Shown here: one piece after another, positions 6,841-39,554 of the stretch
Numbering within the stretch: the stretch's first letter is position 1
How the letters are laid out: each line of letters begins with the position of its first letter
Source: Candidatus Omnitrophota bacterium
GTDB taxonomy: Bacteria; Omnitrophota; Gorgyraeia; Zapsychrales; JANLHA01
Length of the DNA stretch: 64,000 nucleotides
Reading direction: 5' to 3'
Assembly (NCBI GenBank): GCA_020632535.1
Contig: JACKFJ010000001.1
Location: forward strand, 26,890-90,889
The notes under the pieces: generated by a model
The model's database searches: none
Seen by the model: the letters and a program-made list of their open reading frames with translations, nothing else
What the model was told of the DNA's origin: nothing
Made by a program: the position numbers and the translations under genes

Positions 6841-9117
6841 ATGAATCGTGAACATCTCAATGAAGTCAAAGGGATTATTGTCTTTGCCCTCGGTGTAATT
6901 TTGTTGGCAAGCTTGGTCTCGTTTGTTCCTGATGATTTGGCGTGGTATACAACGCATCCGAATTCACCCGCAAAGAATCTCATCCGTGTTGTCGGTGCTT
7001 ATAGCGCCGGCACACTTTTTTTTGTCTTTGGGTATAGTGTTTACTTCCTTGTGGTTTTTTTATTCTTCTGGAGTTGGAATAAATTCGCATCTCGCGAAAT
7101 CAAATTTACGGCCGCAAAGGCTATCAGTTTTCTAATTCTTTTTAGTGTCATCAGTGCTTTATTTAGTATGGCCGGCCCACAAGAAGCGTTTGCTCGATTC
7201 AGTCGAGGTGGTTTTGTTGGTTATACATGCGCGGACTTTCTTGTCAATTATTTGGGTCGTATGGGCGCATATGTTATTCTGACTGCCGTTGGAGCTTTGA
7301 CGTTTGTTATCACAGGAGAGCTTTTAGTATCTCCGCTATTGTTTAAAACAACATCGTCATTGAAAGATTTAGCCGCTCAGATGCGGGAAGGCATCAAAAA
7401 TCGTGACATTGATAAGAAAGAATCATCGTCTGCGCTTCGCGTTCGTCCGGCTGTCGTCCCCGACAAGAAAAAACTCTTCGAATTTCCAAAATTAAAGCTA
7501 CCTGTTGCTGTAGCAAATAAAGATAATGCTCAAAATGCTGGCGGCAAGGAGGAGCTGCAAAAAGCTTTGGCAGGAACAAAACCAACTGCGGATGCAACAA
7601 CAAACGTCAAGCCTGTCGATCCCCCCAAGCCCAATATCAAAATTTTAAAAGGCGATGATAAACCCGTCGCGCCATTACCTGAGCCACAAATTATAGGTGA
7701 GTATCATTTGCCGAGTTTGGAATTATTAAATAATCCACCCATTGTTCCGGCGAATCGTTTGCAAAGTGACCTTGCGCAAGGTGCCAAGATTTTGGAATCC
7801 ACATTGGCTGATTTTAATGTGAATGCGCGCGTCGCGGATATTGAGCATGGCCCAGTCATTACGCGGTATGAATTAGAACCGGCGCCGGGTGTTAAAGTAC
7901 AGAAAATTACGTCTCTCGCGGATGACATTGCGCTTGCTATGAAAGCGCAAACGGTACGCATTGTCGCTCCGATTCCGGGAAAAAATCGTGTGGGTATTGA
8001 AGTCCCTAATAGCTCGTCGGCTGCGGTTTATTTAAAAGACGTTTTAGCTCAAAGTCAATTTTCGAATAGCGGTTCAAAGTTGATGCTGGCTTTAGGGAAA
8101 GATATTACCGGCTCGCCACTGATCGCGGATTTGGCGGAGATGCCGCATTTATTGATTGCCGGAACTACGGGATCGGGTAAAACGGTTTGCGTGAACGCAA
8201 TTATTATGTCTATGCTTTTCAATGCTACACCCGATGAATTAAAGTTCTTGATGGTTGATCCTAAAATGGTTGAATTAAGTCAATACAATGATATGCCACA
8301 TATGCTTTGTCCCGCGGTAACGGATACATCGAAGGTTCCGGCCGCGCTAAATTGGGTTGTTGGTGAAATGGAAGCGCGATATCAAACTCTTTCCAAAGCG
8401 GGTGTTCGAAATATTAAAGGATATCACGCGCAGGGTCATAAACTTCCATACATTGTTTTGATTATTGATGAACTTGCGGATTTGATGCAAACCTCAGCCA
8501 AGACTGTTGAAAGCGCGATTACGCGATTGGCGCAATTGTCTCGCGCTGTAGGTATTCATTTGATTTTAGCCACACAGCGACCATCGGTAGACGTTATTAC
8601 GGGTGTTATTAAAGCAAATTTCCCGTCGAGGATTTCTTTTAAGGTCGCTTCCAAGGTTGATTCTCGTACGGTTCTTGATATGAATGGCGCGGAAAATCTT
8701 TTAGGAAAGGGAGACCTTTTATTCATTCGGCCGGGTGACGCTAAACCTATTCGTGGTCAATGTGGATTTGTAACTGATGATGAAGTTAAGCGTGTGATCG
8801 ATTTTATTAAGCCGCAGCAACAACCTGTATACAATGATAAGATTTTAATTCAACAAAAGGCAGCAACTGGTTCAGAAAACGCAATGGATGATGAGTTATA
8901 CGAAGAGGCTTTGCGTTTGGTTATTGAAATCAATCAGGCTTCGGTTTCTATTCTTCAGCGAAGAATGCGATTAGGTTATACCCGTGCGGCGCGACTTATC
9001 GATATTATGGAACAAAATGGTATTGTTGGTCCATATTGTGGCAGTAAGCCGCGTGACATTTTAGTTAATCGGGAAGAATGGCTAATGCGTAATTCGAATT
9101 CTAAAGACAATACTTAA
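6841..9117 (+). CDS. ftsK: DNA translocase FtsK/SpoIIIE
   Basis: N-terminal 4-TM domain, a P/K-rich linker, a motor domain with Walker A GTTGSGKTVCVNAII and Walker B LIIDELADL, and a C-terminal gamma winged helix (SVSILQRRMRLGYTRAARLIDIMEQNGIVG). Confidence 0.95.
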   Translation: MNREHLNEVKGIIVFALGVILLASLVSFVPDDLAWYTTHPNSPAKNLIRVVGAYSAGTLFFVFGYSVYFLVVFLFFWSWNKFASREIKFTAAKAISFLILFSVISALFSMAGPQEAFARFSRGGFVGYTCADFLVNYLGRMGAYVILTAVGALTFVITGELLVSPLLFKTTSSLKDLAAQMREGIKNRDIDKKESSSALRVRPAVVPDKKKLFEFPKLKLPVAVANKDNAQNAGGKEELQKALAGTKPTADATTNVKPVDPPKPNIKILKGDDKPVAPLPEPQIIGEYHLPSLELLNNPPIVPANRLQSDLAQGAKILESTLADFNVNARVADIEHGPVITRYELEPAPGVKVQKITSLADDIALAMKAQTVRIVAPIPGKNRVGIEVPNSSSAAVYLKDVLAQSQFSNSGSKLMLALGKDITGSPLIADLAEMPHLLIAGTTGSGKTVCVNAIIMSMLFNATPDELKFLMVDPKMVELSQYNDMPHMLCPAVTDTSKVPAALNWVVGEMEARYQTLSKAGVRNIKGYHAQGHKLPYIVLIIDELADLMQTSAKTVESAITRLAQLSRAVGIHLILATQRPSVDVITGVIKANFPSRISFKVASKVDSRTVLDMNGAENLLGKGDLLFIRPGDAKPIRGQCGFVTDDEVKRVIDFIKPQQQPVYNDKILIQQKAATGSENAMDDELYEEALRLVIEINQASVSILQRRMRLGYTRAARLIDIMEQNGIVGPYCGSKPRDILVNREEWLMRNSNSKDNT

Positions 9118-16179: not shown

Positions 16180-16758
16180 ATGAGCGAAGAAAAAAAAGAA
16201 GAGAAACCTGCTGACGTTAAAGCTCCGGCTTCCGATCCTAAAGTGATTTTGCAAGCTTTAGATAAAAGTGCGGCAGCCGAAGTTGCTCAACCGGCTCCGG
16301 CCGCGCCACCAGAAGCCGTCGCTCCAAAAGAAGTTTCGCCACCGGCCTCAGCTGCACCGTCACCAGAATCTACCGCTCCAAAAGAAGTTCCACCACCGGC
16401 TCCAACTGCACCGTCACCAGAATCTGCCGCTCCAAAAGAAGTTCCACCACCGGCTCCAACTGCACCGTCAACAGAAGCCGTCGCTCCAAAAGAAGTTCCG
16501 CCACCGACTCCGACTGCGTCGCCACCCGAAGCTGTTACTCCTGCAGAAATTCCGTCGCCCGTTCCGGTTGTCCCGCCGTCGGCTATTACGCCTTCTGTTG
16601 TAGAATCGACACCGGCTGCTACTTTGGAAACGTCTACTTCTACACCTGAGTCCGTTGCTCCTTCGCCTGCGCCACCGCTGACAACTCCTTTACCCGGACC
16701 TCTTGTCACTGATGCCATGCGTCAGTTGGACGAACTATTAGCCCGTTTTCGTCAATGA
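16180..16758 (+). CDS. Proline-rich tandem-repeat protein (intrinsically disordered), hypothetical
   Basis: Four 18-aa units APKEV(P/S)PPA(P/S)(T/A)APSPES(A/T) plus degenerate flanking copies, with a short C-terminal amphipathic helix (TDAMRQLDELLARFRQ). No signal peptide or TM. The stop overlaps the next start (ATGA at 16755). Confidence 0.6.
   Translation: MSEEKKEEKPADVKAPASDPKVILQALDKSAAAEVAQPAPAAPPEAVAPKEVSPPASAAPSPESTAPKEVPPPAPTAPSPESAAPKEVPPPAPTAPSTEAVAPKEVPPPTPTASPPEAVTPAEIPSPVPVVPPSAITPSVVESTPAATLETSTSTPESVAPSPAPPLTTPLPGPLVTDAMRQLDELLARFRQ
16321..16536 (+). repeat. Tandem repeat, 4 x 54 bp, coding
   Basis: Units start at 16321, 16375, 16429 and 16483 (GCTCCAAAAGAAGTTCCACCACCGGCTCCAACTGCACCGTCACCAGAATCTGCC consensus). 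Locally GC-rich relative to the window. Confidence 0.9.
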
Positions 16759-20253: not shown

Positions 20254-20339
20254 TTCACCTGTTCATTGTGTTAGTGTTGGTCAGTCAAATTTAGGACAAA
20301 GCTTGCATGCAAAGTCTCAACTCGTATAAAAAAATATCT

Positions 20340-23300
20340 ATGATTAAAAAAGTCATTTCTAGTTTGATGCTGGTACCTTTTGTTGTGTCAATGATCACGC
20401 CAGTAGGGGCGCAAATGTTGCCCGTCTCGGGAACTCGCGTCGGTTTAACCGCTGGCCTCGCCACGGATGGGCTCGGCATTCCCTCGGACATCGCTTCGCG
20501 GTCCTCGGTCAGCTTCCAACCGCCTGTGCTTTTGGGTCTCAAAATTCATCCTGAGAATCCGCTATTGTTTGACTTTATCGTTGATCAAGGGGAAAGCAGA
20601 CTTTCAGAGGACGATCTTAAAGCTGAAACTGAAAAGCTCGTAAAATATTTTCTTGCCGCGTTAACTATTCCTGATAAAGAAGTTTGGGTCAATTTGTCGC
20701 CTTATGAAAAAGACCGCATTATTCCTGATGTTTTGGGTCAGACGACAATGGGTAAGACAATGCTTGAGCAAGATTATCTTTTAAAGCAATTAGCGTCTTC
20801 GCTTACTAATCCCGAAGAAAAGTTAGGGCAGGAGTTTTGGGGTAAGGTGAAGGCACAAGTTGGTGGAAGTGATGTGCCAATGAATACGTTTAATAAAGTT
20901 TGGATTGTCCCGCAAAAAGCGGAAGTGTTAGAAAGTCAGGGTATTGTTTTGGTTGGTGAAAAGCGCTTAAAAGTTATGATGGCGGATGACTACACTGCGA
21001 TGAACATGTCATCCCCGCAATCTCAATCTCTGTCATCCCCGAATGCTCAATCTTTGTCATCCCCGCAATCTTTAAGCGGGGATCCACTGGCAAAGAATGG
21101 ATTCCCGATTAAAGATTTCGGGAATGACAAAAATATTAAAGCATTCGGGAATGATAACAGCAACGTTTCCTCCCAAGTCTTTCGCGACGTGATCCTTCCT
21201 AACATCGAAAAGGAAATCAATGAAGGCAAGAATTTTGCTGATGTTCGCCAGATTTATAATTCCGTCATTTTAGCCGCGTGGTATAAAAAAGCACTCAAAG
21301 AAAGTTTGTTGGGTAAAGTTTACACTGACAAAGGTAAGGTCGCGGGCGTTGAAACCGATGACAAGGATATGAAGCAGAGAATTTATGAGCAATATTTGTC
21401 CGCGTTTAAGAAGGGCGTGTATAACCTTATTAAGGAAGAGTCTGATGTGATAAGTGGTGACATTATTCCTCGTAAGTATTTTTCGGGAGGGTTGAATTTG
21501 TCGGGCGATCAATTGGAGCGTAAAGTTGTTGCTTTGGCAACTATTGAACAAAATTTAAACGCAAGTTCCGGGATTATTGTTGCGACTGTCCAAGGCGTTG
21601 AAAGCGGGGCGTCGGAGCAAGGAGCGGTACAAAGTCAAGTTTCTTCAAGCGCGGTGCAAAATGTGAATTCAACGCAAGCTGGACGGGTTCAGGAAATTGT
21701 TACTTGGTTAAAAAATAAGATGAGAGATTTATTCGGAGAAAAGAGTCTTGTCGAAGTGAAGTTTTCTTCTGATTTGCTTAATCGCTTGCAAGAAATAAGA
21801 GCAGTTAATAACGAAGCTCCTTTTGCTGGTGATATTAATGAGGATACTTTACGAAAAGTTGTTAATTTTCTTAATGGGCATTTTGATGATGCACTATATG
21901 GACAATCAAAGGTTTTATACTATCACAAGGGCTATCATGAACTATTTGCACTGAAAGCAAATGATTTTCTTCCGAATTCGGATGATAGTTTGACACAAAT
22001 TGCTGCGAAAGAAATCGCTTTAAACAATCGTCTTGATGCCGCTGTTGTGATTCTTCGTGATTTATTGAATTTCGAACCATGGACACTTGGGGAACAAGCA
22101 ATGTCTGAAGGGCAAAAGGTTTCTAAATTGGTCGTTTTGGGATTTAAAGTCAATGGACAGTGGGCGAGATATTCTGAATTAAAGCCTGAGTTGACGAAGT
22201 TAGGAGTAATCATTGCCTCAAGTGCGGTCAACAGCGACGGCAAGACAATGGCGGATGTGATTTTAGAAAATAGCGCTTTATTAGAAGGATCACAAAGCGC
22301 GCAATTGCATTTGCTTTGGTTGCTCCAAGAGGATCCATTGATACAATCCCAAAAGCAATCTGAAGATAGGTATAAAGATATTGCGATTTCAGCGGAAAGT
22401 AAATTTAGCGCGATGACCGATGAGCAATTGGGGCTGGAGTATTCGCGATTTGTCGGCCGAAGCCAACCATTTTATCAACCAGCCTTTGTGAAGAATGAGA
22501 ACAAGGGTATTGTCGGATTTCTTGATGTTCTTTCTTTGAAAGATACTAATTATGGTATGACTAAACTGACTAATTTTTTAGATGATTTTGTCGGTAACTT
22601 TAGAAATGTTAGGCCGGGTGCATTGGCAGTAGCGAATGATAATATTCTTGCTGTCTATATCGAAGCAAAAGCATGGATGCGCGAGGTTCTCTCTCGGTCA
22701 GGCGTGACAGCAGAAAGAGATGCAACATTTGAAGATTTAATTTCTGGTTTGCGGCAAAATAGTGCCCGTTCGACAAGTCAGCCAGCTCCAGAAAGTTATT
22801 GGCAATTTGAATTTGCGATTAATGCGTTATTGCAAGATGTCGCGCCTTATCCAGATGCTTTTAGGGAAGATATTTTTACAATCTTTATGAGCTCACTTGT
22901 TGAATACGAGAGGGTTGAGGAAACAAGATGGGTTGAGAGTATAACATTAGAAAATGGTAACAAAGCTTGGGTACTTAGCGACAATGGAGTACATGAAGAT
23001 TTGTTGCAGGATTATGATCGCTTTGCAAAGTTCTTTACTGCCGTTGGTGTTACAAAGGAGAAAGGTCTTAATAGACAAGTTTTGACATTGTCAGAGGATT
23101 TTATAAGTAAAATTAATGCTATTAAAGCTAATGCTTCTAGCGCGATTGAAGAAGCAGATACTGTCTCGGCGCCGATTGTCGCTCCGGGTGGTATTGACTT
23201 TGACCCAACGAATATGAATTTACAAATTAAGCGTGATGGTAAGGGGGTTCCTTTGCCGATTCCGCAGCAGAACTTTGAACAAATCAATATTCAAGGTCTT

Positions 23301-23417
23301 TCGCCTGTGATCATTAACATCATGCCGGTTAATGCGCAAACTTTACCGATATTTTTAGGACAAGCTTCCAAAGATCCTGCAATTGATCCGAAAGTAGCTT
23401 TGAGTACCGCGAGTTAA
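20340..23417 (+). CDS. Large secreted protein of unknown function (~1025 aa)
   Basis: The ATG at 20340 gives a Sec signal peptide, MIKKVISSLMLVPFVVSMITPVGAQ; the ORF track starts 11 codons earlier. No catalytic motif recognised. There is a conserved-looking C-terminal block APGGIDFDPTNMNLQIKRDGKGVPLPIPQQNFEQINIQGLSPVIINIMPV. The gene contains an in-frame palindromic repeat cluster (21008-21155). Confidence 0.7.
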   Translation: MIKKVISSLMLVPFVVSMITPVGAQMLPVSGTRVGLTAGLATDGLGIPSDIASRSSVSFQPPVLLGLKIHPENPLLFDFIVDQGESRLSEDDLKAETEKLVKYFLAALTIPDKEVWVNLSPYEKDRIIPDVLGQTTMGKTMLEQDYLLKQLASSLTNPEEKLGQEFWGKVKAQVGGSDVPMNTFNKVWIVPQKAEVLESQGIVLVGEKRLKVMMADDYTAMNMSSPQSQSLSSPNAQSLSSPQSLSGDPLAKNGFPIKDFGNDKNIKAFGNDNSNVSSQVFRDVILPNIEKEINEGKNFADVRQIYNSVILAAWYKKALKESLLGKVYTDKGKVAGVETDDKDMKQRIYEQYLSAFKKGVYNLIKEESDVISGDIIPRKYFSGGLNLSGDQLERKVVALATIEQNLNASSGIIVATVQGVESGASEQGAVQSQVSSSAVQNVNSTQAGRVQEIVTWLKNKMRDLFGEKSLVEVKFSSDLLNRLQEIRAVNNEAPFAGDINEDTLRKVVNFLNGHFDDALYGQSKVLYYHKGYHELFALKANDFLPNSDDSLTQIAAKEIALNNRLDAAVVILRDLLNFEPWTLGEQAMSEGQKVSKLVVLGFKVNGQWARYSELKPELTKLGVIIASSAVNSDGKTMADVILENSALLEGSQSAQLHLLWLLQEDPLIQSQKQSEDRYKDIAISAESKFSAMTDEQLGLEYSRFVGRSQPFYQPAFVKNENKGIVGFLDVLSLKDTNYGMTKLTNFLDDFVGNFRNVRPGALAVANDNILAVYIEAKAWMREVLSRSGVTAERDATFEDLISGLRQNSARSTSQPAPESYWQFEFAINALLQDVAPYPDAFREDIFTIFMSSLVEYERVEETRWVESITLENGNKAWVLSDNGVHEDLLQDYDRFAKFFTAVGVTKEKGLNRQVLTLSEDFISKINAIKANASSAIEEADTVSAPIVAPGGIDFDPTNMNLQIKRDGKGVPLPIPQQNFEQINIQGLSPVIINIMPVNAQTLPIFLGQASKDPAIDPKVALSTAS
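21008..21155 (+). repeat. Intragenic cluster of short palindromic repeat units, read through in frame
   Basis: There are three direct 24-nt copies (21008, 21032, 21056). A 30-nt hairpin unit GTCATCCCCGCAATCTTTAAGCGGGGATCC (21056-21085) has an inverted, covarying copy GGATTCCCGATTAAAGATTTCGGGAATGAC (21099-21128). GCATTCGGGAATGAT (21141-21155) is inverted relative to GTCATCCCCGAATGC (21032-21046). Confidence 0.8.
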
Positions 23418-33828: not shown

Positions 33829-35323
33829 TTCCTTGAAGTTCAATCAAAAAGCCCAACAAGTCATTGAATATCTGCTCATTATGGCAGCTGTGGTCGCCGG
33901 TGTTTTGGGTATTGCCGGACCTTCTGGGCCGATGCGTAATGCTGTTGAAAAATCTTTAAATAAAGCTGTTGAAACAATCTATCAAGGTTACACATGGCGA
34001 TTAGGTTCGCCGGGTCCCTGTTCTGCGTCATGCGGAATAGGTACGGCTTCGCGTGGTGTATCTTGTCAACGTGAAGACGGCGTTAATGTGGCTGATTCAT
34101 TTTGCGAAGAAGCCAGTGGTGTCACTCGGGCATCTTTAGAAACGGTTGCATGTGATTCTGGAGTTTGCGGAAGCTATGCTTGGGTAGGCGGTGGATTTGG
34201 TGCATGCAGTGCTCTCTGTGGAGGCGGAACACAAACACAAACAGTTATCTGTCGTGATTCAGGGGGAGCAACTGTTGCAGATACATTTTGTGCGAGCGCT
34301 GGGCCTAAGCCAGTCAGCCAGCCTTGTAATACGGGGGCTTGTTATGTTTGGCAATCGGGTGGAGCATGTACAACAACATGTACCGTAGCTTGTGGTATTG
34401 GAAGTTGTTCTCAAGACGTTAGTTGTAAAGACACCGTGTCGGGGACAACGACTGCCGATAGCAACTGTCCTTCCGGAACAAAGCCATCTACTACGATACC
34501 GTGTAATACATCATTAACGTGTGGTTTTCAATGGCAGGTGGGTAGTTGGAGTGCTTGTACTGTGGCGTGTGGAGGTGGAACGAGAACCAGAACAGTGCAG
34601 TGTATTCGTCAGTCTGATGGAACCGCTGTTGCCGATACCAATTGCGATGCAGGATCAAAGCCATCTTCCAGCGGCACGTGCAATACCGTTTCATGTAATC
34701 ATTGGGAATTGACGAGTTCTTGGGGACCTTGCAATAGTGTTTGTGGGTCAGGAACACAGGAAATTATTGTAGAGTGTAAGAATTTGCAAGGAATTGTATT
34801 AGCTGATGATCAATGCGATATTGCGACAAAGCCCAGTAGTACGAGGGCGTGTCCAAGCTTACCGTCTTGTGGATATAGTTGGGGAAGTAGCTTGTGGGGG
34901 TCATGCAGTGTTACATGCGGAACGGGAACGCAAAATCGCACGGTATTTTGTACAAGAACTTTTGATGGCACAAATGTCGATGTTTCTTATTGTCAGGCGG
35001 CAGATCCTAGCGGGGAACCAGCGGCAAGTCAGTCTTGTACAATAGAATGTTATTCTTGGGTTGCTACGTCGTGGGGAGATTGTAGCACGACATGTGGAAC
35101 GGGAACACAATCAAGAAATTATGAGTGTCGTGACGGTAATGGAAATGGTTCTGTAGTCGGCAATAATTTTTGTATTAATGCTCTTGGAGCGCCACCGACA
35201 ACGACTCAAAATTGTAGTGATACATCATCATGTTGTGGAAATGGGACGTGTGATAATTTGCAATCGGTTGGTTATGTCGAGACTTGCAATACCTGTGTGA
35301 ATGATTGCGGTGTTTGTCCGACT
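33829..35323 (+). repeat. Direct duplication, copy 1 (~1.5 kb; 5' part of the TSR gene)
   Basis: Collinear with 36103-37597 at a constant offset of 2274 nt, with no indels seen. My hand alignment found roughly 40-50 substitutions (~97% identity), decaying sharply after ~35255. Confidence 0.9.
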
Positions 35324-35914
35324 TGTTCTGATGGGATACAAAATCAAGGCGAAACCGGTGTTGATTGCGGCGGGCCAAATTGTTCTGCTTGTCCGACATG
35401 TTCTGATGGCATACGGAATCAATCGGAATCAGGAGTTGATTGCGGTGGTCCCTGCCCAGCTTGCGTGACATGTTGGGATGGGATACGAAATCAGGGAGAA
35501 GCTGGTGTCGATTGCGGTGGGCCGTGTCCTGCACCTTGTGCAACATGTGGAGATTTTGTGCAAAACCAAGGTGAAACCGGCGTTGATTGCGGTGGTCCTT
35601 GTCCCGCTTGTCCGACATGTTACGACGGGGTAAAAAATCAAGGAGAAACTGGTGTCGATTGTGGGGGGACGTGTGTAGCTTGCCCTCCTTTACAAATAAC
35701 CGGTTGTGGCTGCGGTAGCTGCCCTGCTGGGGCAATTCCTACAGTTGGTACATTTCCTTTTGGAAGTTTAGGTATGAGGTGTAATAATCCTGGTGGTGGG
35801 TTGAATGGTTATAGTCAATGGCCTGGACTTGGAATATGGATACCCGATACTGCCACACCGTTGTGTTCGAGTCAGTGGTTTGGAGGAGATATGTGCTGGT
35901 TGTTCGCTCCTTAA
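33833..35914 (+). CDS. Prepilin-like (Flp/class III signal) secreted protein with 7 ADAMTS-type thrombospondin type-1 repeats and 5 C-terminal Cys-rich GVDCGG repeats (paralog 1)
   Basis: TTG start with AGGAGA 7 nt upstream, and an in-frame stop at 33815. The N-terminus is MKFNQKA/QQVIEYLLIMAAVVAGVLGIAG. It carries seven ~57-60-aa units of the type FQWQVGSWSACTVACGGGTRTRTVQCIRQSDGTAVADTNCDAGSKPSSSGTCNTVSC, and is extremely Cys-rich. Confidence 0.85.
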   Translation: MKFNQKAQQVIEYLLIMAAVVAGVLGIAGPSGPMRNAVEKSLNKAVETIYQGYTWRLGSPGPCSASCGIGTASRGVSCQREDGVNVADSFCEEASGVTRASLETVACDSGVCGSYAWVGGGFGACSALCGGGTQTQTVICRDSGGATVADTFCASAGPKPVSQPCNTGACYVWQSGGACTTTCTVACGIGSCSQDVSCKDTVSGTTTADSNCPSGTKPSTTIPCNTSLTCGFQWQVGSWSACTVACGGGTRTRTVQCIRQSDGTAVADTNCDAGSKPSSSGTCNTVSCNHWELTSSWGPCNSVCGSGTQEIIVECKNLQGIVLADDQCDIATKPSSTRACPSLPSCGYSWGSSLWGSCSVTCGTGTQNRTVFCTRTFDGTNVDVSYCQAADPSGEPAASQSCTIECYSWVATSWGDCSTTCGTGTQSRNYECRDGNGNGSVVGNNFCINALGAPPTTTQNCSDTSSCCGNGTCDNLQSVGYVETCNTCVNDCGVCPTCSDGIQNQGETGVDCGGPNCSACPTCSDGIRNQSESGVDCGGPCPACVTCWDGIRNQGEAGVDCGGPCPAPCATCGDFVQNQGETGVDCGGPCPACPTCYDGVKNQGETGVDCGGTCVACPPLQITGCGCGSCPAGAIPTVGTFPFGSLGMRCNNPGGGLNGYSQWPGLGIWIPDTATPLCSSQWFGGDMCWLFAP
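35324..35689 (+). repeat. Five tandem coding repeats of 24-25 codons (C-x-D-G-[IV]-x-N-Q-[GS]-E-x-G-V-D-C-G-G-P-C-P-A-C)
   Basis: The units are CSDGIQNQGETGVDCGGPNCSACPT, CSDGIRNQSESGVDCGGPCPACVT, CWDGIRNQGEAGVDCGGPCPAPCAT, CGDFVQNQGETGVDCGGPCPACPT and CYDGVKNQGETGVDCGGTCVACPP. They occur only in paralog 1. Confidence 0.9.
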
Positions 35915-39368: not shown

Positions 39369-39520
39369 ATTGCACGGAACGTAGTGACGAAGTCCAGAAA
39401 GGACTTAGTTTGTGCGCAATCTAGATTGCCGCGTCGTCCCTACGGGACTCCTCGCAATGGGTATCAAAATAAATTTACCTTGCGGGACTCCTCGCAATAG
39501 GCATTAAAATAAATTTATCT
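39369..39520. repeat. Palindromic intergenic repeat, family B: two full units plus a 37-nt local tandem duplication
   Basis: Unit 1: ATTGC...AGTCCagaaaGGACT...GCAAT (39369-39420). Unit 2: GATTGCcgcgtcGTCCCtacGGGACtcctcGCAAT (39424-39458). GGGACTCCTCGCAATGGGTATCAAAATAAATTTACCT (39444-39480) is repeated at 39484-39520 with 4 differences. Confidence 0.75.
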
Positions 39521-39554
39521 TTGCATTTTTGTGTGTTTGGAGTGACAATAAACT

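Follow-up and report, generated by a model that had tools for sequence, protein, structure and literature searches.

A probable dimer of CGTC-type palindromic repeats in frame within a variable loop of an Omnitrophota secreted protein

The repetitive extragenic palindromic (REP) sequences with a CGTC tag are small hairpins defined by a terminal CGTC or TGTC tag, an 8–9-bp stem whose first two positions are A/T, and a 4–5-nt loop (Di Nocera, De Gregorio & Rocco 2013, PMC3733652). They have a short unpaired tail with the consensus CCA, occur mostly as head-to-head dimers with the tags outside, and have TGTC or CCTC as the tag in many members (PMC3733652). Genomes contain tens to thousands of units, and loops of other lengths are found in a few species (PMC3733652). 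Dimers located inside genes encode 20–30 amino acids and clusters encode 43–82 (PMC3733652). The best known case of protein-coding palindromes, the Rickettsia palindromic elements (RPEs), are in-frame palindromes in unrelated genes at positions compatible with the protein fold (Ogata et al. 2000, 2002; PMC10969869). Two of them belong to the same superfamily: CGTC-1 corresponds to dRS3 of Neisseria, and CGTC-1 and CGTC-4 of R. conorii are RPE-6 and RPE-4, respectively (PMC3733652). Here we describe a segment at positions 21007–21157 of a 64-kb stretch of DNA (the window, to which all coordinates without a prefix refer) from a 'Candidatus Omnitrophica' metagenome-assembled genome (MAG). We consider it likely that the segment is a head-to-head dimer of CGTC/TGTC-tagged REP hairpins, which lies in frame within a hypervariable loop, predicted to be disordered, in the conserved N-terminal domain of a secreted Omnitrophota protein. 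Intragenic CGTC-tagged dimers, the class that includes RPE-4 and RPE-6, are an established phenomenon; the case in the window would add a long-loop variant from a phylum not previously reported as a host.

The core of the segment consists of two 32-nt hairpin units that face each other, flanked on both sides by partial tandem copies of the two ends of the dimer (Table 1). Both units contain the loop AATCTTTAA (9 nt), and their stems differ at two positions, both of which are compensated. The three 24-nt direct copies (21007–21030, 21031–21054 and 21055–21078; period 24, score 107 in Tandem Repeats Finder), the hairpin unit with its inverted copy, the covarying stems and a further inverted half-site had been noticed in a sequence-only reading of this DNA, and all of them are present. 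The same reading had the region translated without stops, and the whole segment is indeed in frame within the host open reading frame (ORF), with the predicted product ...MSSPQSQSLSSPNAQSLSSPQSLSGDPLAKNGFPIKDFGNDKNIKAFGNDN... The first partial 5' copy has neither a 3' arm nor a complementary partner and stands as an unpaired extra copy. Both repeat pairing and folding place the second partial 5' copy and the partial 3' copy in the outer layer of a long hairpin. Because the outer half sites (21033–21047 and 21140–21154) are mutually complementary (93%), the whole segment forms a nested hairpin of ∼120 nt.

Table 1. Coordinates of the host gene and of the parts of the palindromic segment
Feature	Positions	Strand	Description
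Host ORF	20307–23417	+	1036 amino acids from the first ATG
Partial 5' copy 1	21007–21030	+	TGTC tag, 5' stem arm, duplicated loop start
Partial 5' copy 2	21031–21054	+	complementary to the 3' partial copy 21135–21157
REP unit 1	21055–21086	+	TGTC tag, 8-bp stem, 9-nt loop, CCA tail
Unit 1, tag	21055–21058	+	TGTC
Unit 1, 5' stem	21059–21066	+	ATCCCCGC
Unit 1, 3' stem	21076–21083	+	GCGGGGAT
Unit 1, tail	21084–21086	+	CCA
Spacer of the head-to-head dimer	21087–21097		11 nt, CTGGCAAAGAA
REP unit 2 (inverted)	21098–21129	-	TGTC tag, stem ATTCCCGA/TCGGGAAT, loop AATCTTTAA, CCA tail (minus-strand reading)
Unit 2, tail	21098–21100	-	TGG on the plus strand
Unit 2, tag	21126–21129	-	TGTC
Partial 3' copy	21135–21157	+	direct repeat of 21108–21130 (87%), 27-nt spacing; 3' stem arm and tag

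The hairpin arrangement is beyond chance. TCCCCG-N(4–14)-CGGGGA and TTCCCG-N(4–14)-CGGGAA each occur once in the window (0.00 and 0.04 expected from shuffles, respectively), the RNA fold of 21000–21165 reaches -65.9 kcal/mol with a z score of -8.2, and the DNA fold of 21050–21135 has a z score of -8.0; in neither fold did any shuffle equal the natural sequence. One of the three reading frames of a dimer strand has no stop codon, which leaves one open frame per strand, and the open-frame product is rich in Ser, Pro, Gly and Asp. A homology search with the 51-residue insert peptide returned four candidates, none of them significant. The only Rfam match, to the plant microRNA precursor family MIR4239 at 21034–21154, was below threshold (50.3 bits, E 3e-9; gathering score 100); we rejected this match because it is driven by the shape of the long hairpin and not by common sequence. 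Long bacterial palindromes can score against microRNA precursor models.

Comparison with CGTC-tagged REPs shows that the window units share the tag, the 8-bp stem with an AT start, the CCA tail and the head-to-head dimer with tags outside. Heterodimers with differing stems and occasional in-frame intragenic dimers are further points of likeness. The window differs in its 9-nt loop, its short 11-nt spacer and its partial tandem copies at both ends. We treat the units as a putative long-loop variant of the superfamily rather than excluding them from it. Omnitrophota are not among the reported hosts of these repeats, the recurrent occupation of the same loops in one very large paralog family has not been described for them, and the literature that we searched contains no report of them from this phylum. 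GTAG-tagged REPs and their RAYT transposases form another described system (Nunvar 2010 and Ton-Hoang 2012, cited in PMC3733652); homologs of the host protein contain GTAGGG...CCCTAC 28-nt palindromes in the same loops, whereas the tag in the window is TGTC. No RAYT gene was found, though no search aimed at one was made.

A 2025 study described the same hairpins as NTS and SRM (Ssn-related motifs) and reported that, in single-stranded form, they are cleaved by the GIY-YIG nuclease SsnA (PMC11893778). NTS have a 4-nt loop and hundreds of copies, lie next to ssnA and are rarely intragenic (2% in N. meningitidis 8013); the ssn gene (small GIY-YIG, cd10448) is often flanked by the SRM motif HGTCWYN(0-2)YYVSBRHN(0-5)WNVSBRGN(0-2)RNCYNB (PMC11893778). 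Unit 1 matches this motif (21055–21087) and is the sole match in the 64 kb, where shuffles give 0.06 on average. Checked by hand, unit 2 departs from the motif at a single stem position, where an A-T pair stands instead of S. The window likewise has the core GTCATTCCCG...CGGGAATCC, the conserved 5' flank and the C after the stem, and its inverted pair resembles the NTS-gene-NTS arrangement minus the gene. It differs from NTS in that the element is intragenic and present at a single locus in 64 kb, with no ssn gene found nearby.

Like RPEs, the window element is palindromic, in frame and placed where the predicted fold can accommodate it. Several RPE families, RPE-1 among them, differ in being longer (∼100–150 bp) and in encoding a conserved peptide, and RPEs come from an obligate intracellular alphaproteobacterium, in which they are spread over dozens of different genes. 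The sequence-only reading had compared the segment with RPEs as selfish palindromes inserted in frame in a different lineage, and the comparison is supported by the checks that this reading had proposed (see below). The link to Rickettsia is closer than analogy, since RPE-4 and RPE-6 belong to the same superfamily; it rests on the published description of that superfamily (PMC3733652). Among the characters of miniature inverted-repeat transposable elements, inverted termini are present, as the whole dimer is palindromic, but no target-site duplication is evident.

We built a covariance model (R1) from 75 units of other loci and none from the window, and ran it with filters off. R1 recognizes unit 1 with 49.4 bits (E 4.5e-11) and unit 2 with 52.9 bits (E 5.2e-12), the E-values being rough. 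In the repeat family at large, the variable Y/R stem pair is complementary in 125 of 130 distinct units (T-A in 91, C-G in 34), the closing stem pair is Watson-Crick in 90% of them and uses three pair types, and pairing ends after the eighth stem pair. A hand-trimmed subset that happened to lose a few mismatched units gave 100% pairing and was set aside in favour of these unbiased counts. The 9-nt loop is the commonest class (73/130). In a set of 205 units, 64% have TGTC and 29% have CGTC as the tag, and 191 (93%) have A as the third tail base, a position unforced by any search pattern. Conservation of the tag, of the AT-start stem with compensated changes and of the CCA tail shows that the constraint acts on the DNA hairpin.

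Copies of the unit are found both between and within genes. In 1.2 Mb of other Omnitrophota DNA, R1 found 19 units at 13 sites. The sites in frame in the N-terminal domain of the host protein family (see below) are in loci L124, L002, L194 (two sites) and L187, and one further site, L194:4581, is in frame in a gene for a type III pantothenate kinase. Sites that are intergenic or 5' of a gene occur in L183, L195 (beside tRNA-Asn), L002:14508, L141, L132, L127:9850 and L194:1483. At L002:14508–14596 an intergenic dimer is found, whose first unit differs from unit 1 of the window at two loop positions. Dimers at L002:10795, L002:14510 and L124:10513 have spacers comparable in length and composition to that of the window. 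Leaving the window out, unit density is ∼5 sites per 75 kb in the family N-domain and ∼7 sites per 110 kb in non-coding DNA, compared with 1 site in ∼1.05 Mb of other coding DNA; the N-domain is thus at the non-coding level and ∼70 times above other coding DNA. A permissive loop together with many paralogs can explain this density.

Beyond Omnitrophota loci, the single unit has at least 120 matches in viral contigs and the dimer at least 120 in metagenome contigs. Among the matches listed, 91 are metagenome dimers, of which 67 lie outside ORFs, 17 are ambiguous and 7 are in long open frames; dimers with the tags outside are seen in these 91 as well as in L002, L124 and L187. Unit counts inside long open frames are unreliable in GC-rich contigs (viral-collection loci) and are used here for single examples only. 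Of the seven metagenome dimers in long open frames, four lie in genes that Pfam confirmed as real; these code for an Lhr helicase, a FolC-like Mur ligase, a GH1 glycosidase and a histidine kinase. The sequence-only reading had proposed a search of the genome for other copies of the unit, intergenic and intragenic. Both kinds exist in other Omnitrophota and metagenome loci, so that the segment can be described, from sequence comparison, as a dispersed hairpin repeat, but none was found elsewhere in the 64-kb window. Intergenic clusters at L141:8360–8550 and L132:4435–4502 mix CGTC-type units with other palindromes (CATTGCGA...GAAGCAATC and others) and resemble the mosaic REP clusters described in Neisseria. 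At L127:9850–9877 the annotated N-terminus of P0011 (MFIGFWLNCVGCHPRERGSIKMNTH...), a homolog of the host protein, crosses a CGTC-type unit, and a start downstream of this unit (MNTHNHRKF) is more plausible; here a repeat has been absorbed into a gene model.

The host gene is annotated by NCBI as H6754_00220, a hypothetical protein with a start at 20340 (1025 amino acids). Its product contains a signal-peptide-like N-terminus, judged from reading the sequence only, and a conserved N-domain of ∼330 residues (HPENP...RKYFSGG); a variable middle separates this domain from the GGIDFDPTNMNLQIKRDG... module, which is conserved at the C-terminus. It matches no family in Pfam or NCBIfam, and a Foldseek search of the PDB with the N-domain model returned no match at E <= 0.001. 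We identified at least 3888 homologs, nearly all labelled Omnitrophota and often several per contig; contigs labelled 'Planctomycetales' look like the same group. Family members, several per genome, have the N-domain and the C-terminal GGIDFDPTNMNLQIKRDG...VIINI module enclosing unrelated middles. In the source MAG, the N-modules of the host protein (P0001) and of P0003 are 94% identical and their middles unrelated, a pattern that suggests module shuffling.

An AlphaFold2 model of the N-domain has a mean predicted local distance difference test score (pLDDT) of 72.9 and a predicted template modelling score of 0.72. The insert corresponds to model residues ∼179–228. Its mean pLDDT per 10-residue block is 39–42 for residues 191–220 and 53–59 in the two edge blocks, and its only secondary structure is a 4-residue helix at the start. 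The helices that bracket it have block means of 79 and 91. The insert is thus predicted to be a disordered loop between confidently modelled helices, in agreement with the surface-loop placement that the sequence-only reading had proposed to check by structure prediction. By this model the insertion is in frame and at a fold-compatible site, as described for RPEs, and the host would gain about 50 disordered residues. The gene contains a second in-frame insert (20455–20511, plus strand), a 57-nt sequence that encodes LATDGLGIPSDIASRSSVS and contains no palindrome but four CTCGG motifs, all on the same strand. This insert is cleanly missing from the syntenic ortholog described below and is unrelated to the palindrome cluster, though an example of the same phenomenon; near-identical DNA is found in L124, at the matching site, and in L127, at two different sites.

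The locus L001 is syntenic with the window, with a gene for a 1146-residue membrane protein upstream and TPR and ABC-transporter genes downstream in both. Its ortholog of the host protein, P0002, is 76% identical and has an unrelated palindrome in the corresponding loop (CCATTGCGAGGAGCCCGCAGGGCGACGAAGCAATCTC ... GAGATTGCTTC..CTCGCAATGG). Across 120 homologs the loop varies from ∼10 to ∼90 residues, and in many it contains short native sequence alone. The loops in L002 and L124 contain window-type dimers, whose stems show compensated changes relative to those of the window. At L194:5461 the short-loop unit GTCATTCCCGCGAAAGCGGGAATCC is read in another frame, as VIPAKAGIH. Further homologs have perfect 28-nt GTAGGG...CCCTAC palindromes or one of several other palindromes in these loops, and duplications of half-units are also seen in L124, P0079, P0008 and, for type B, in P0013. 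A DNA alignment of 49 domain copies reveals three insertion hotspots, and a fourth position is used in L187. In the Omnitrophota DNA that we sampled, perfect GC-rich hairpins with a stem of 8 bp or more number 9.1 per kb in insert columns of the domain and 0.38 per kb in core columns; the values for other long ORFs and for DNA outside long ORFs are 0.13 and 0.52 per kb, respectively. Since the loops of the ortholog and homologs differ and the hairpins are so distributed, the peptide is not the conserved entity. Two proposals of the sequence-only reading are thereby answered: orthologs and paralogs do not have the segment in common, and homologs with a similar peptide (L002, L124) always have nucleotide hairpins.

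Exchange at such sites is suggested by other members of the family. A perfect 28-nt palindrome of the GTAG type with ∼15 nt on each side (∼60 nt) is 100% identical at L133:10559–10586, L137:10499–10526 and L140:8857–8884, while the flanks differ at ∼12–15% of positions. At another hotspot, L137:10363–10386 and L140:8719–8746, the flanks are identical and the perfect palindromes different. These patterns suggest that palindromes may be converted or replaced at fixed sites.

We propose the following mechanism for the probable REP dimer in the window. The element may spread as a single-stranded DNA hairpin on which an enzyme acts in trans; apart from Ssn, a GIY-YIG single-strand nuclease and the sole candidate from the literature, no protein is known to act on hairpins of this type (PMC11893778). 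Insertions, or conversions from paralogs, would arise at many places. As only one frame of the dimer is stop-free, copies that fell into another frame or outside a tolerant loop would be lost. The 24-nt and 27-nt partial end copies may have arisen through slippage at the hairpin, and their lengths are multiples of three, so that the frame was kept. Gene conversion could spread copies or loop alleles among the many paralogs. We infer such conversion because P0003, a paralog on another contig of the source MAG, contains an identical palindromic insert within its 94%-identical N-module, and because of the ∼60-nt identity among L133, L137 and L140.

Several observations weigh against an inserted, mobile CGTC-tagged repeat. 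The loop of both window units has 9 nt rather than the 4–5 nt of the published definition. The 64-kb window contains one locus of the unit: it has no further GC-rich hairpin of this type, and R1 returned nothing beyond the two units at E below 0.4. With only 19 units in 1.2 Mb, the repeat is at best a low-copy family in the phylum. Inspection of the dimers in the window, L002 (two), L124 and L187 revealed no consistent flanking direct repeat. The left junction of the window insert (AMNM|SSP) is common to P0068; together with the identical insert in P0003, this means that the window copy may be inherited or gene-converted and not recent. Finally, jackhmmer searches seeded with E. coli YhbQ and the L196 protein, over the six-frame ORFs of ∼3 Mb of loci, recovered only L196 itself; neither in the window nor close to a hairpin in these loci was a GIY-YIG ORF found. 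The L196 gene (8045–8335, Pfam E 7.5e-16) is the sole GIY-YIG gene that we found in Omnitrophota, and no CGTC-type hairpins lie beside it. It lies directly upstream of tRNA-His (8341–8418; the arrangement spans L196:8034–8418) and is preceded by a duplicate of the first ∼18 nt of that tRNA (GGTGGGTGTAGCTCAGTT), a layout as if the GIY-YIG gene had been inserted into the 5' end of tRNA-His.

Hairpins of this kind might instead be kept for an action in cis, on mRNA stability or translation pausing, as recombination or transformation sites, or as breakpoints for shuffling of paralog N-modules. Limiting or directing recombination and transformation around surface-protein genes has been proposed for NTS and Ssn in Neisseria, where NTS repeats cluster beside such genes (PMC11893778). 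The very stable predicted structure of the segment would fit a cis function, as would the density of units in the N-domain, the palindrome stretch that is identical in L133, L137 and L140 between diverged flanks, and the common N-modules with unrelated middles of P0001 and P0003. However, the breakpoint between P0001 and P0003 is at YFSGG and not at the palindromes, and the density is explained without a function by a permissive loop and gene conversion among paralogs. Most homologs, and the syntenic ortholog too, lack the element or have something else in its place, the loops concerned are shared by several unrelated families of palindromes, and no terminator-like or promoter-like site was found within the insert. 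We therefore regard a role in cis as unlikely.

A further reading takes the exposed N-module loops as preferred landing or exchange sites for several REP families (CGTC-type, GTAG-type and others), which the cell would use to diversify its secreted proteins. A single-strand nuclease or transposase and paralog recombination would then act together, and the outcome would be surface-protein variation instead of passive tolerance of selfish DNA. We consider this reading improbable.

The segment could also be a plain low-complexity linker, lengthened through replication slippage within coding repeats, in which the palindromes are incidental. The 24-nt and 27-nt tandem copies, the Ser/Pro/Gly-rich peptide with its predicted disorder and the ordinary coding tandem repeats in other genes of the window are all in line with this. 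Yet R1, a model from unrelated loci, recognizes both units at E ∼1e-11, the tag, the tail and the stem covariation are features of a family at the DNA level, and the dimer is also found in non-coding DNA (L002:14508) and, for 67 of the 91 metagenome dimers among the matches listed, outside ORFs. Slippage accounts only for the partial end copies, and the linker explanation is largely refuted; we hold it to be very improbable. That a palindromic repeat was misjoined into the gene by assembly or binning is barely credible: the source is a MAG and palindromes can cause misassembly, but the frame is intact over 150 nt, both flanks align to homologs, the independently assembled paralog P0003 has the same insert, and analogous in-frame dimers occur in independent assemblies (L002, L124, L187).

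If the segment is the REP dimer that we take it to be, protein-coding palindromes extend from Rickettsia to Omnitrophota and to several unrelated metagenomic enzymes, and a widespread long-loop variant of the CGTC REP superfamily is identified. The coding palindromes would then be tied to one hairpin superfamily (CGTC-tagged REP/NTS/SRM), whose partner enzyme Ssn has been described only recently. Also new is that, across a very large secreted-protein family, the same loops are occupied repeatedly. As several palindrome families pile up in a few loops of this one family, it offers a convenient natural system for the study of repeat movement and of any part that the repeats play in protein variation. 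For annotation, SSPxxxxGDP...GFPxKxxGND, VIPAKAGI and SFPRKRES inside proteins should be read as translated repeats and not as protein motifs.

The window contains further tandem repeats. At 16307–16535 a tandem repeat with a 54-nt period (4.2 copies) encodes a Pro-rich linker. Within a 698-residue ORF, 4.8 copies of a 75-nt period at 35314–35661 encode modules rich in Cys (CxxCxDGxxNQGExGVDCGG). A 40-nt repeat at 39443–39521 (two copies) has a stop codon in every reading frame across it.

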